From NCBI RefSeq assembly GCF_003334335.1, contig NZ_QOWQ01000021.1: DNA of 64,000 bases; one strand, written 5' to 3'. Each line of letters begins with the position of its first letter. The first letter of the stretch is position 1. A program made the translations under genes and the position numbers. Source of the DNA: Escherichia coli (GTDB taxonomy: Bacteria; Pseudomonadota; Gammaproteobacteria; Enterobacterales; Enterobacteriaceae). The notes beneath the pieces were generated by a model. The model was not told the DNA's origin. It was given only the letters and a program-made list of their open reading frames with translations, and did not search any database. Below, piece by piece: positions 36,963 to 46,805 of the stretch.

Positions 36963-37367
36963 TCACTTACCCTTTGTTTCGTTATAGTCACGGCCTGCGA
37001 TGCGGTTATTCCCGCCAGAGATATTTAACCCTCCCCCTGATGACTGACTCTCCTTTTCAGTGACTGCACCTTTCAAAGCACCAATCACCGCGTTTTTCAC
37101 ATCTAGTGAGGCACTCCGAAAACGTGTGATCAACTCCTGCTCATCATCGTTATAAGTTTCAGGTGAATGAATTCCCAACACGACATACTGAACATCAAGG
37201 CCAAAACGCGACAACGCTGATAAGTACGCCGCATCAGGAAAGCTATCCCCTTTCTCATATCTAAGTTGGGTTAACTTTTTAACCCCACCAATATCACTCA
37301 TAGCGACTTGGCTAAGACCCAGCCGTTCCCTTTCCTCACGCAACCGTTGGCCAATATCATTTTTCAT
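36963..37367 (-). CDS. XRE-family HTH repressor (immunity repressor, P2 C / CI equivalent)
   Basis: 134 aa; N-terminal HTH_XRE (IGQRLREERERLGLSQVAMSDIGGVKKLTQLRYEKG); leftward, divergent from the cox-like gene as in P2 immunity regions. Confidence 0.8.
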   Translation of the reverse strand: MKNDIGQRLREERERLGLSQVAMSDIGGVKKLTQLRYEKGDSFPDAAYLSALSRFGLDVQYVVLGIHSPETYNDDEQELITRFRSASLDVKNAVIGALKGAVTEKESQSSGGGLNISGGNNRIAGRDYNETKGK

Positions 37368-37376
37368 ACAAAAACC

Positions 37377-37405
37377 TTGACAGGTATCTTTTTTGATACC
37401 AAAAT
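37377..37405 (+). promoter_or_regulatory. candidate early promoter with embedded operator palindrome GGTATC-N6-GATACC
   Basis: TTGACA -35 hexamer, 17 bp spacer containing the perfect inverted repeat ggtatcttttttgatacc, then caaaat; lies between divergent repressor and cox-like genes. Confidence 0.5.
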
Positions 37406-37442: not shown

Positions 37443-37661
37443 ATGAAACAAGTTGTTCACGACACCAGATCACGGATTCCGCGTAACACAGCTACAGGAC
37501 CGCGACTGGCACTTCGATTGTCAGCAGAAGAGCGAGCCGTCATTGATGAAATGGCAACTAAAGAACAGCGCTCATCCTCTAACATGGCACGCATGATCTT
37601 CCTTCGTGGCCTTGAGATTATCCAGAAAGAGCAAAACCAATCTTCATGCTCAGGAGGTTAA
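37443..37661 (+). CDS. ribbon-helix-helix DNA-binding protein (Cox/Cro/Apl-equivalent first early gene)
   Basis: 72 aa; RLALRLSAEERAVIDEMATKEQRSSSNMARMIFLRGLE fits a strand-helix-helix pattern; first rightward gene after the repressor. Confidence 0.6.
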   Translation: MKQVVHDTRSRIPRNTATGPRLALRLSAEERAVIDEMATKEQRSSSNMARMIFLRGLEIIQKEQNQSSCSGG

Positions 37662-37665
37662 CGGG

Positions 37666-37869
37666 ATGCAAGGTATAACAATAAACATCAACGTTAATGC
37701 CCCTTACGTATCTCTGAAGAAATACGCCGAGATAACAGGCATTCCTCTTAACACATGCAAAAAGATGTTGGCTGACGGTCGAATTATTATCCGCCCCAAA
37801 CGCGCCAAAATGGAAAAACCAGAAGTAAACCTTATAGCTATGTTAAAAGACGCAATAGCCAACAGCTAA
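37666..37869 (+). CDS. small HTH regulatory protein (AlpA/excisionase-like fold, tentative)
   Basis: Internal Met of track ORF 37606..37869; YVSLKKYAEITGIPLNTCKKMLADGRI looks like a short HTH. Confidence 0.5.
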   Translation: MQGITININVNAPYVSLKKYAEITGIPLNTCKKMLADGRIIIRPKRAKMEKPEVNLIAMLKDAIANS

Positions 37870-38156: not shown

Positions 38157-38480
38157 ATGAAGCAACAACGAAATGCACGCATCAATAACAACACCGAACG
38201 CCACGTTGCACGCCAGCACTTCCGTAAAAATAGTGCGACCGCAACCACTGAAATCCATACCACACCAGACGGTCATCAGATAAAACAAACCGGAAAGCAC
38301 ACCTGGGCGATTGGCGACACTGGCATCGTTATTCACAAAAGTTTTCGTAGCCCTGTTACTGGCAGAATTAATTTTACCCTGACTCGCGGAGATGATTACT
38401 TCGGACAGGACTTCACATTTTTTGAAGCCTTAAGAACGGTCGATCGGTTAATGACTGGTCGTAATTTTCACGCTAAATGA
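38157..38480 (+). CDS. hypothetical basic protein, 107 aa
   Basis: Track ORF, co-directional and tightly packed in the early operon. Confidence 0.5.
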   Translation: MKQQRNARINNNTERHVARQHFRKNSATATTEIHTTPDGHQIKQTGKHTWAIGDTGIVIHKSFRSPVTGRINFTLTRGDDYFGQDFTFFEALRTVDRLMTGRNFHAK

Positions 38481-38727: not shown

Positions 38728-38967
38728 ATGACCAGAAATTACAAAGAAATCGTCAATCAGATCATTAAGGCTTACAGCCACCGCATTGCAAAATTACCCG
38801 AGTTCATACGCATAATGGAGACGCATTCATTAATGCAAGGACTGAACGGGTTGGCACTGGCCGCATTGGCAGCTAACGATATTGATGCCACCATCGAAAT
38901 AAACAACCTGTTATTAGACATTGAAAAAGGCGGAAACATAGAACCCTACAATCTGGAGGCCGCATGA
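38728..38967 (+). CDS. hypothetical protein, 79 aa
   Basis: Track ORF, early operon; stop overlaps the next small ORF (ATGA). Confidence 0.5.
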   Translation: MTRNYKEIVNQIIKAYSHRIAKLPEFIRIMETHSLMQGLNGLALAALAANDIDATIEINNLLLDIEKGGNIEPYNLEAA

Positions 38968-39089
38968 GCGTATTTCTTTCATGGCTAATTCTGATTATCT
39001 CCGTACTTATGGCAATCGGCATTATGCGAATTATCCACACACTGAAGGATATCGAATTATTCTTTACCGGCGATAAACGCCGTAAATAA
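38964..39089 (+). CDS. small hydrophobic peptide, 41 aa (single TM)
   Basis: ATG preceded by ggagg SD; MSVFLSWLILIISVLMAIGIMRIIHTLKDIELFFTGDKRRK; below ORF-track cutoff, found by manual translation. Confidence 0.5.
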   Translation: MSVFLSWLILIISVLMAIGIMRIIHTLKDIELFFTGDKRRK

Positions 39090-39101
39090 AGCGAAAACGT
39101 T

Positions 39102-39197
39102 ATGAAGAATGTAAAAGCAATACTCACCATTGCCAGTGTGTGGCTGATATTTCAGGTGTGTGCGCTTATCTGGTTAGCCCTGAAGATCTGGGAATAA
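39102..39197 (+). CDS. small hydrophobic peptide, 31 aa (single TM)
   Basis: MKNVKAILTIASVWLIFQVCALIWLALKIWE; weak SD; found by manual translation. Confidence 0.35.
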   Translation: MKNVKAILTIASVWLIFQVCALIWLALKIWE

Positions 39198-39302
39198 CCT
39201 TAAGCTTCAAATAAGAACGCAATAACACCAGAAAACATACGAACAATTAATTAAGGCATTCATGCCATCGGGTTCCCTTTGTCTTTTTTCAGGAGTCAAC
39301 AA

Positions 39303-39527
39303 ATGAGAACAGTCGAATCACCCGCAACCGCCAGACCAGTTAACCATCATGCACATATCAGCATGGCCGCGAGAAAAGCCGAGCGTGCGCATATCTGCGA
39401 ATTGCTCCGAGACCTGGTTAACACGGCGAAAGAGAAGCACTCCTCCCCGCTGGAAACCTGTTCAGCCATTGAACGACTGATTGCAACGCTCACGAACAAC
39501 ACCGAACTGAAGGGGTCAGCGCAATGA
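39303..39527 (+). CDS. hypothetical protein, 74 aa
   Basis: Internal ATG of track ORF 39279..39527 preceded by aggag; stop overlaps the exonuclease start. Confidence 0.5.
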   Translation: MRTVESPATARPVNHHAHISMAARKAERAHICELLRDLVNTAKEKHSSPLETCSAIERLIATLTNNTELKGSAQ

Positions 39528-40105: not shown

Positions 40106-40338
40106 GGTGAAGCCATGGTCGCCATCCTGAATGTGTGTTGCTGCCCCCCCCTGAACGTGGAAAGAAAAGCCCGCGCATCGCTGCGTTTATTCCGCGACGG
40201 CGTGCGGAATTTTTCACGCATAAAACCCCACGACTACCTGGTAATAAGAATCGGTTTCCGCTGGCGATTACTGAGCAAAAACAACGGGGCGTCATGGGAT
40301 TTATTAACGCACGAAACCTATAACAAAGAGGCCGCGTT

Positions 40339-41319
40339 ATGAGCAAAGAACTGTTATCCGGTACGCCACTGAAATGGGTGGGCGGAAAAAGCCGCATCAT
40401 GAACACACTGAAGGCGCACCTGCCAGAAGCCGACTGTCTGGTTGAGCCGTTCGTGGGCGGCGCATCGGTATTCATGAACACCAGTTACAAGCGTTACATC
40501 CTGGGTGATTCCAATGGTGCGCTGATTAATTTCTACCGGCAAGCTAGGGACAACACCGACAGCCTGATCGACGAGGCGAAAACCCTGTTCCTGAACCACA
40601 ACAACAGGGGTGACTATCTCATCATTCGCGAAACCTTTAACGCAGAGAATCATGCCTTCCTGAACAGCAGAACGGGAATAAGCGACCGCCGTGAACTGCG
40701 ACTGGCCGCCATGTTTTTGTACCTGAACCGACACAGCTTTAACGGTTTGTTCCGCGTGAACGGAAAAGGCGATTTTAACGTGCCTTTCGGCTGCTACCGC
40801 AAGCCCTACTTCCCTGAGCGTGAAATCCGCGCATTTGCAGACAAGGCAAACAGCACCCGAACGCTGCTTATCCACGCAGATTTTAAGGATACGCTGAACT
40901 CTGCCAGTCACCTGTTCGGCATGGGCAACACGCTTTGCGTGTACTGCGATCCCCCTTACCTGCAATTCAGTGGCCGGGACAATTTTACCGCCTACGGAAA
41001 ACCATTCGATGAAGACGAGCACGTTCGTCTGAGGGCAGCGCTTGACCGCCTTTCACAGGAAACGGGCGGCATGACCAGCATCACCATCTCCAATTCCGAC
41101 ACACCGGAAACACGACGCATTTATCGGGGTTACCGGATGAACTGCATACAGGCACCACGAAGCGTTGGCGCAAGAACCCGGGAATCAGCACCGGAGGTTA
41201 TCGCCACCCTGAGACAGTGCGACGCCTGCGGTCACCATGGCGGTGGCTACTGCCCGGACTGCGGACCTGTAACGGGAGATGCAACTTACAGCGTGATGTT
41301 TACCCCTGCCAGTACGTGA
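40339..41319 (+). CDS. Dam-family DNA N6-adenine methyltransferase with C-terminal Cys-rich extension
   Basis: 326 aa; FxGxG SAM motif (VEPFVGGASVF) and catalytic DPPY; C-terminus CDACGHHGGGYCPDCGP looks like a zinc ribbon. Confidence 0.85.
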   Translation: MSKELLSGTPLKWVGGKSRIMNTLKAHLPEADCLVEPFVGGASVFMNTSYKRYILGDSNGALINFYRQARDNTDSLIDEAKTLFLNHNNRGDYLIIRETFNAENHAFLNSRTGISDRRELRLAAMFLYLNRHSFNGLFRVNGKGDFNVPFGCYRKPYFPEREIRAFADKANSTRTLLIHADFKDTLNSASHLFGMGNTLCVYCDPPYLQFSGRDNFTAYGKPFDEDEHVRLRAALDRLSQETGGMTSITISNSDTPETRRIYRGYRMNCIQAPRSVGARTRESAPEVIATLRQCDACGHHGGGYCPDCGPVTGDATYSVMFTPAST

Positions 41320-41354: not shown

Positions 41355-41591
41355 ATGAATAGCGAAAACAACAAAGAGCTTTTGCGGGAATTGCGTCTCA
41401 TCGCCCGTGCACATGAGGAAGCAGCAAAAGTTATCGCTGCTGCTGGAAGACCAGAGCTCGTTATCGCTTCAGCAATCTCACTGAGGATCACCATGGAAGC
41501 AATCCGGGTGATTCAGGATCAGGAAAGTGAAATCGCCACCCTTAAAAAGCAGCTCAACGAGAAATCTGCCGGGCAAAGGAGTCAGCAATGA
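41355..41591 (+). CDS. hypothetical protein, 78 aa
   Basis: Track ORF; predicted helical; early operon. Confidence 0.45.
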   Translation: MNSENNKELLRELRLIARAHEEAAKVIAAAGRPELVIASAISLRITMEAIRVIQDQESEIATLKKQLNEKSAGQRSQQ

Positions 41592-46595: not shown

Positions 46596-46805
46596 ATGAA
46601 CATGACCAGAAACAGCAAACCGAAGGAGCACACCATGAACGACATCAGGAGGATCAGCGACAAAGAGCTTACGAAAATGATTGAGTCGGCGCAGCAGCTG
46701 CTTTCACGACGAAATCCGGTTGTGGAAGAAACATGGTGGGAAAATTTACTGGCAGCACTGACCGAACTCCGCGAACGCCGGAACAACGAAGGAGCCGCCA
46801 AATGA
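46596..46805 (+). CDS. hypothetical protein, 69 aa
   Basis: Track ORF; stop overlaps the next start. Confidence 0.45.
   Translation: MNMTRNSKPKEHTMNDIRRISDKELTKMIESAQQLLSRRNPVVEETWWENLLAALTELRERRNNEGAAK

Follow-up and report, generated by a model that had tools for sequence, protein, structure and literature searches.

Phages encode small products that bind one host protein, for example of the envelope or the division machinery, some of them as single-pass membrane peptides. Examples include SPO1 gp56, lambda Kil, Qin DicB, and LysM, a 37-amino acid product of phage M that blocks MurJ and is encoded by the lysis gene of an RNA phage. Other small single-helix membrane peptides, 30–50 amino acids in length, bind a specific larger membrane protein, an interaction for which residues of the helix matter, as in the pairs MgrB–PhoQ, AcrZ–AcrB, and MgtS–MgtA (PMC12648545). 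The type I toxins of Escherichia coli (TisB, IbsC, ShoB, DinQ, Hok, and Ldr) are likewise shorter than 60 amino acids and consist of one membrane helix with very short tails (PMC12648545). The two peptides considered here, ORF1 and ORF2, are encoded in tandem in an E. coli prophage, and ORF1 has a counterpart in phage P88, where the 37-amino acid gp07 (YP_009113050.1) is annotated as a "membrane protein". A literature search returned no paper on ORF1, ORF2, the neighboring DUF4754 and DUF4761 genes, or their accessions.

The stretch of DNA that was analyzed, referred to here as the window, is 64,000 nucleotides of E. coli contig NZ_QOWQ01000021.1 (assembly GCF_003334335.1). The element in the window is a P88-like (Xuanwuvirus, Peduoviridae) prophage of E. 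coli, and the tyrP, yecA, and ftnA genes located to its left are host E. coli genes (99% identity). E. coli NCTC9112 (NZ_LR134079.1) and strain EC2 (NZ_CP058571.1) carry both ORFs in a region approximately 94% identical to that of the window. The relevant features of the prophage are as follows.

36963–37367, minus strand: repressor gene, at the left edge of the rightward early operon
37377–37405, plus strand: best promoter-like site in the promoter scan (TTGACA-17-CAAAAT, 10/12), opposite the repressor and heading the rightward early operon
37666–37869, plus strand: gene for a Cox-like protein (PHROG 575)
Between the Cox-like gene and DUF4761, plus strand: 64-amino acid ORF (from gene order)
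38157–38480, plus strand: DUF4761 gene (from gene order)
Between DUF4761 and DUF4754, plus strand: 71-amino acid ORF (from gene order)
38728–38967, plus strand: DUF4754 gene, 79 amino acids (PHROG 2549; predicted three-helix bundle)
38955–38959, plus strand: GGAGG Shine-Dalgarno sequence of ORF1, inside the DUF4754 coding sequence and 4 nt before the ATG
38964–39089, plus strand: ORF1, 41 amino acids, P88 gp07-type prophage membrane peptide
39087–39101, plus strand: TAA stop codon of ORF1 and the 12-nt A-rich spacer that follows, with no Shine-Dalgarno sequence
39089–39220, plus strand: lineage-specific block of approximately 132 nt that carries ORF2, inserted in the spacer after ORF1
39102–39197, plus strand: ORF2, 31 amino acids, orphan hydrophobic peptide
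39221–39302, plus strand: spacer before orf74, conserved with or without ORF2
39303–39527, plus strand: orf74 (ATG at 39303), 74 amino acids, the next gene after ORF2
After orf74, plus strand: genes for a 3'-5' exonuclease, then a ParE-like protein, then a Dam methylase (from gene order)

The genes from the Cox-like gene through the Dam methylase gene are all co-directional with short gaps. The terminator scan revealed no convincing terminator between the genes of the operon, including the stretch from the Cox-like gene to ORF1 and ORF2, and the site at 37377–37405 is the sole strong promoter-like site for the operon. The label "early operon" is a reasonable one, taken from the genome organization of P2-like phages and the position of these genes on the Cox side. 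ORF1 and ORF2 would be transcribed within this early lytic operon, so they would be made upon infection or induction and not in a quiet lysogen. The operon contains two further genes of interest. A 72-amino acid ORF on the plus strand (37443–37661) directly follows the best promoter-like site and has weak matches to ribbon-helix-helix (CopG-like) Pfam families (E = 0.04). In the corresponding prophage of strain EC2 (L001), PGAP calls a 45-amino acid ORF on the opposite strand in its place, and RefSeq may thus carry a wrong annotation for the gene that opens this operon. Farther downstream, relatives of a 75-amino acid ORF on the plus strand (40115–40342) are annotated as "ParE family toxin-like protein". 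The 3' end of this ORF overlaps the start of the Dam methylase gene by 4 nt, and no evident antitoxin gene beside it and no PADLOC match were found.

ORF1 encodes MSVFLSWLILIISVLMAIGIMRIIHTLKDIELFFTGDKRRK and ORF2 encodes MKNVKAILTIASVWLIFQVCALIWLALKIWE. A preliminary description of the window, made from the sequence alone, had placed two tandem hydrophobic ORFs here, and both are present at the positions given above with exactly the translations it reported. It had also noted an ATGA overlap and a ggagg Shine-Dalgarno sequence at the start of ORF1, and both are borne out by the sequence: the ATG of ORF1 (38964) overlaps the TGA stop codon of the DUF4754 gene, and GGAGG is found at 38955–38959. 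Other lineages contain a G-rich equivalent at the position of the GGAGG. The overlap implies that translation of ORF1 is coupled to that of DUF4754.

The best 19-residue segment of ORF1 (residues 3–21) has a Kyte-Doolittle score of 2.72, and a mean of 2.4 over 19 residues is reached by only 3 of the 293 ATG-initiated ORFs of 25–60 amino acids in the window. The two other mini-ORFs that pass this cut-off (at 46645, 32 amino acids, and at 41414, 42 amino acids) both lie on the minus strand, whereas the operon is on the plus strand, and they are probably antisense artifacts. ORF1 can be divided into a membrane helix (approximately residues 2–21), an amphipathic juxtamembrane helix that extends to approximately residue 35, and a basic C-terminus; residues 2–21 are uniformly hydrophobic, while residues 19–35 are amphipathic. 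AlphaFold2 predicts one continuous helix spanning residues 2–38, with pLDDT values of 86–94 over the first 30 residues. The charge is 0 before the helix and +3 after it, from which an N-out/C-in orientation is predicted. ORF1 would thus enter the membrane N-out/C-in as one long helix. Neither ORF1 nor ORF2 had a meaningful match in Pfam, PHROGs, NCBIfam, PADLOC, or the PDB sequences.

The distribution of ORF1 is broad. RefSeq annotates an identical ORF1 in strain EC2 as WP_001537134.1 ("hypothetical protein"), P88 gp07 is 73% identical to ORF1, family matches have E values from 1e-17 to 1e-10, and UniRef contains entries named "prophage membrane protein" from E. coli, Shigella, and Salmonella. 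The preliminary description had held that peptides of this kind are routinely unannotated; this is wrong for ORF1, as both WP_001537134.1 and P88 gp07 demonstrate, and its related statement that the pair was missed by the ORF track holds for ORF2, which is generally unannotated, but not for ORF1, which is routinely annotated in RefSeq and in P88. ORF1 DNA is present in at least 576 of 5426 complete E. coli genomes (about one in ten), and ORF1 is also found in prophages of Salmonella, Shigella, and Citrobacter. All 12 of the sequenced phages that match are P88-like, and ORF1 was not found in phages P2 or 186. ORF1 loci were also fetched from viral, genome, and metagenome collections using the DUF4754 gene as bait, and in every locus fetched in this way ORF1 is directly downstream of DUF4754, with the ATGA-type overlap in 102 of 102. 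The scan of genome contigs with DUF4754 patterns gave one locus, and the taxonomic spread of ORF1 rests on the other sources.

The pattern of substitution in ORF1 is that of a protein-coding gene. Over 50 distinct sequences, the pooled pN/pS is 0.32 in frame vs 1.24 and 1.29 in the two shifted sense frames, and the sense frame is open in all 50. One antisense frame, in which the wobble positions coincide with those of the sense frame, also has a low pN/pS (0.36); only 23 of the 50 sequences keep this frame open. Comparison of the window ORF1 with the P88 type likewise indicates coding selection (Fisher p = 1.3e-8). Among 24 diverse members, S6, W7, A17, and I24 are invariant and S2, F4, L10, I11, G19, I20, M21, I23, and K28 are near-invariant, and in most members the helix is followed by a K-x-I-E-x-[FL]-F-T-G motif. 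ORF1 is also the best conserved protein of its module, with 73% identity between the window phage and P88, compared to 50% for DUF4761 and 29% for DUF4754. Taken as a reading of sequence data, these results indicate that ORF1 is a real and widespread core gene of P88-like phages, already annotated, that encodes a single-helix membrane peptide.

The upstream neighbor of ORF1 was also considered. DUF4754 is predicted with confidence (pLDDT 90) to fold into a three-helix bundle that continues into an extended, conserved C-terminal tail. This tail ends in a conserved I/V-E/K-P-Y/F motif, the codons of which also hold the ribosome-binding site of ORF1. The best matches in a fold search with DUF4754 have E values of approximately 0.6–1 and are generic helical bundles, such that there is no informative structural neighbor and therefore no functional lead from DUF4754. 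In one locus (L003), DUF4754 is only 27% identical to that of the window while ORF1 is 93% identical. Because the sequence of ORF1 has been kept despite this exchange of DUF4754, the data do not require a tight complex between the two proteins. Two observations on the mosaic organization of the region can be added here. The DUF4754/ORF1 junction (38964) is a mosaic breakpoint, as the DNA of L003 is near-identical to that of the window from the start of ORF1 on, and beyond the spacer that follows ORF1 everything downstream is variable cargo across lineages.

The conservation of individual residues bears on how ORF1 may act. The residues S6, W7, A17, G19, and I24 of the helix have been conserved while the flanking genes diverge or are exchanged, which favors a specific partner over a bulk-hydrophobic pore. 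ORF1 would most likely act by a sequence-specific helix–helix contact with a partner in the membrane. Candidate partners are inner-membrane proteins of the host and early phage proteins that ORF1 would tether to the membrane. Neither the homology searches nor the fold search gave a lead to a partner or an activity. The preliminary description had suggested that such peptides often act in host takeover, as membrane-depolarizing factors, or as small toxins. In line with this, an alternative is that one or both peptides are generic membrane-damaging agents, i.e., depolarizing peptides or small toxins that form pore oligomers and contribute to early host shutdown with no specific partner. Their size, single hydrophobic helix, and short tails do match those of small membrane toxins (PMC12648545), and their location in the early operon of a temperate phage would suit such a function. 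However, neither peptide is similar to any Pfam toxin family, the position-by-position conservation of the ORF1 helix is more typical of specific packing, and uncontrolled depolarization early in infection would hurt the replication of the phage itself. This alternative is therefore considered rather unlikely, and a specific helix partner for ORF1 is preferred. A role in defense or superinfection exclusion was also considered. No PADLOC match was obtained for ORF1, ORF2, or the neighbors from DUF4761 to orf74. ORF1 and ORF2 also belong to an early operon that is repressed and lack separate promoters, which runs counter to such a role.

ORF2 presents a different picture. The best 19-residue segment has a Kyte-Doolittle score of 2.30, the membrane helix comprises approximately residues 7–27, and the presence of K2 and K5 at the N-terminus leads to a predicted N-in/C-out orientation. 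The preliminary view of the pair as single-helix hydrophobic peptide genes, co-directional in the early region, is supported by hydropathy, gene order, and pN/pS (for ORF2, see below). ORF2 lies in the block of approximately 132 nt (39089–39220), the edges of which are ambiguous by a few nucleotides because of AATAA repeats. The block is found in the sub-lineage of the window and is cleanly absent from a related locus (L002) in which the flanks align on both sides, and in all other P88-like lineages ORF1 is separated from the following gene by a spacer of only approximately 80 nt. All 13 loci with an ORF1 at least 90% identical to that of the window carry ORF2 (a few of the 13 represent a contig that was retrieved twice), and none of the 88 remaining loci does. 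Among the 5426 complete E. coli genomes the block was detected in 21, and no copy was found in the phage or plasmid collections. A scan of the metagenome collection with a wobble-degenerate pattern recovered 13 further copies of ORF2, with no new variants, all of which are intact and directly after ORF1 with the same TAA and 12-nt spacer. Conservation in homologous early regions, which had been proposed as a check on the two peptides, thus holds for ORF1 in 102 of 102 loci; for ORF2 it holds only within one sub-lineage, the gene being absent from other P88-like lineages. As most P88-like phages do not carry ORF2, ORF1 does not need ORF2.

Annotation of ORF2 is sparse. PGAP leaves it unannotated, and there are three sporadic GenBank entries (KGM81220.1, DAU42316.1, and DAY48760.1). 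An exhaustive search of 1.84 billion representative proteins, using a profile that carried both ORF1 and ORF2, returned a single ORF2 representative, the ORF1 family, no remote relatives, and no protein spanning both ORFs. The two peptides are not paralogs as judged by protein comparison. An origin of ORF2 by inverted or direct duplication was considered and rejected, as the repeats are not collinear and the ORF1 and ORF2 proteins share no similarity.

Given these properties, it might be asked whether ORF2 is simply a chance open frame in inserted spacer DNA, with ORF1 as the only real gene. The lack of a Shine-Dalgarno sequence, the lack of a PGAP call, the absence of ORF2 from 88 of 101 P88-like loci and from phage and plasmid records, and its status as an orphan with one representative in 1.84 billion proteins and a small sequence sample are all consistent with a frame of this kind. 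The substitution data, however, argue against it. Among six distinct nucleotide versions, the sense frame is open in all six and pN/pS is 0.28 in frame vs 2.3 and 2.4 in the shifted sense frames. The comparison of the window with L007 yields 11 differences at 18.7 synonymous sites and 6 at 65.3 non-synonymous sites (Fisher p = 2.6e-5). Because the six distinct sequences represent two or three sub-lineages, the number of independent events in this selection test is limited. Furthermore, the replacements are mostly conservative (S/T, V/A, L/V, I/V, and C/S), the insertion in L094 is a one-codon, in-frame insertion, and the effect of a 1-nt insertion in the L007 lineage is confined to the C-terminal three residues (IWE to NLGII). 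In all 26 translated loci, ORF2 retains its start codon and an intact frame. A chance frame is thus improbable, and ORF2 is best described, as far as sequence comparison can tell, as a genuine-looking orphan gene that is rarely annotated and restricted to one young sub-lineage.

The signals around ORF2 differ from those of ORF1. The ATG of ORF2 (39102) has no Shine-Dalgarno sequence (aaagcgaaaacgttATG). ORF1 and ORF2 are in one frame, and both the length of the spacer and the frame are kept in all six distinct sequences. The AUG region of ORF2 is A/U-rich and mostly unpaired in relatives, and pairing of the start codon with ORF1 codons was seen in the window sequence but in 0 of 5 relatives. 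A long-range RNA pairing of ORF1 with ORF2 through inverted repeats was also examined and set aside, as it is confined to the window sequence and its z-scores are unremarkable. Neither a promoter of its own (promoter scan) nor a conserved RNA structure (consensus fold) was found for ORF2.

Termination–reinitiation is an established mechanism for closely spaced bacterial cistrons. As ORF2 lacks a Shine-Dalgarno sequence and starts 12 nt past the stop codon of ORF1, its translation is probably due to reinitiation by ribosomes that have just terminated on ORF1, and the fixed 12-nt spacer and the unpaired, A/U-rich start fit this mechanism. The missing Shine-Dalgarno sequence could equally signify poor or no translation of ORF2.

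The common frame also raises the question of whether ORF1 and ORF2 constitute one gene, either because the TAA at 39087 is read through to give a two-helix hairpin or because a single gene was recently split. The frame is shared, with the TAA and four codons in between, in six of six distinct sequences, and the topologies predicted for the two peptides complement each other, with the basic residues of each facing the cytoplasm. A common frame, however, has a one-in-three chance of occurring, and out-groups carry ORF1 alone with its own stop codon. Conservation of the TAA in every copy and the lack of a fused homolog among the 1.84 billion representatives make readthrough fusion unlikely. Efficient readthrough of UAA is not known in E. 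coli. The single-gene arrangement is accordingly regarded as exceedingly improbable, and ORF1 and ORF2 are treated here as two genes.

The spacer before orf74 (39221–39302) contains a palindrome (AAGGCAT-TC-ATGCC, 39253–39266), a T-run (39278–39289), and an AGGAG (39291–39295). This spacer is highly conserved in L002 as well, which does not carry ORF2, and the palindrome found at this place in other P88-like lineages has a different sequence (ATCCGCA-nnn-GCGGAGG). The palindrome and T-run were not called as a terminator in the terminator scan, and they could be a protein-binding or RNA-processing site.

A further possibility is that ORF2 is the toxin of a type I toxin–antitoxin pair, with an antisense RNA from the minus strand as the antitoxin and the module serving to stabilize the prophage. 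ORF2 fits the definition of such toxins, as it is shorter than 60 amino acids and has one membrane helix (hydrophobic residues 7–27) and short tails (PMC12648545), and it behaves as a small insertable block. In addition, the minus strand of 39060–39320 folds better than shuffled sequences (z = −2.7, with 0 of 200 shuffles as stable), a result obtained with one sequence, and a weak promoter-like site of the extended −10 type can be found by eye on the minus strand (−35 element TTAATT at 39250–39245, a 17-nt spacer, and TGgTGTTAT ending at 39222, with the −10 element at 39227–39222). The promoter scan, on the other hand, gives no minus-strand site there, Rfam gives no match, and the minus-strand consensus of six relatives is without covariation support (term +0.53, one compensated pair). 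The weak site found by eye sits in spacer that is equally conserved in L002, where ORF2 is absent. Moreover, ORF2 has no promoter of its own, structured leader, or hidden ribosome-binding site and is read through from the operon. A Pfam search with a cut-off as lenient as E ≤ 10 gave no match to Hok, Ldr, TisB, Ibs, Fst, or any other family; NCBIfam, PHROG, and PADLOC gave none either, and nothing like ORF2 is found on plasmids. Results from these searches make a type I toxin very unlikely.

The explanation we prefer, with somewhat better than even confidence, is that both ORFs are real genes for single-pass inner-membrane peptides, wherein ORF1 has a specific helix partner and ORF2 is a reinitiated accessory subunit. 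ORF2 would be a recent, lineage-restricted insertion into the spacer just after ORF1. As the predicted N-in/C-out orientation of ORF2 is opposite to that of ORF1, we infer that antiparallel packing of the two helices is possible, with ORF2 as the accessory subunit. A more elaborate proposal is that ORF2 is a very young gene, born in or captured into the spacer, that has become a selected, reinitiation-dependent subunit of a split two-helix antiparallel module. This proposal is speculative and unlikely as it stands; if true, the birth of a small gene within a phage operon could be traced in ORF2, and natural sister phages that carry and lack it could be compared.

There are several reasons for interest in these peptides. 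A defined role for ORF1 would annotate thousands of genomes at once. ORF2 is a selected 31-codon gene that current pipelines miss even in the best-sequenced species, and sister prophages with and without ORF2 provide a natural pair for asking what a newly added micro-peptide contributes.

Comparison to known systems places ORF1 and ORF2 in a familiar category, that of the small hydrophobic peptides from phage early regions, and there is no indication of a new kind of system or a new mechanism. ORF1 corresponds to P88 gp07, WP_001537134.1, and WP_000021704.1, which resemble it in their place after DUF4754, their 4-nt overlap with that gene, and their single helix. The two types differ in length, with 41 amino acids, including a GDKRRK tail, in the window type and 37 in the P88 type. 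SPO1 gp56, Kil, DicB, and LysM have no sequence relationship to ORF1 or ORF2, and what all of these share is that they are small phage products. ORF2 is similar in shape to the type I toxins of E. coli but has no sequence similarity to them and is located inside a phage operon. Finally, the invariant S, W, A, G, and I pattern of ORF1 resembles the mode of MgrB, AcrZ, and MgtS, a likeness of shape and conservation pattern only, and in contrast to the phage-encoded ORF1, these three peptides are the products of chromosomal stress-response genes.
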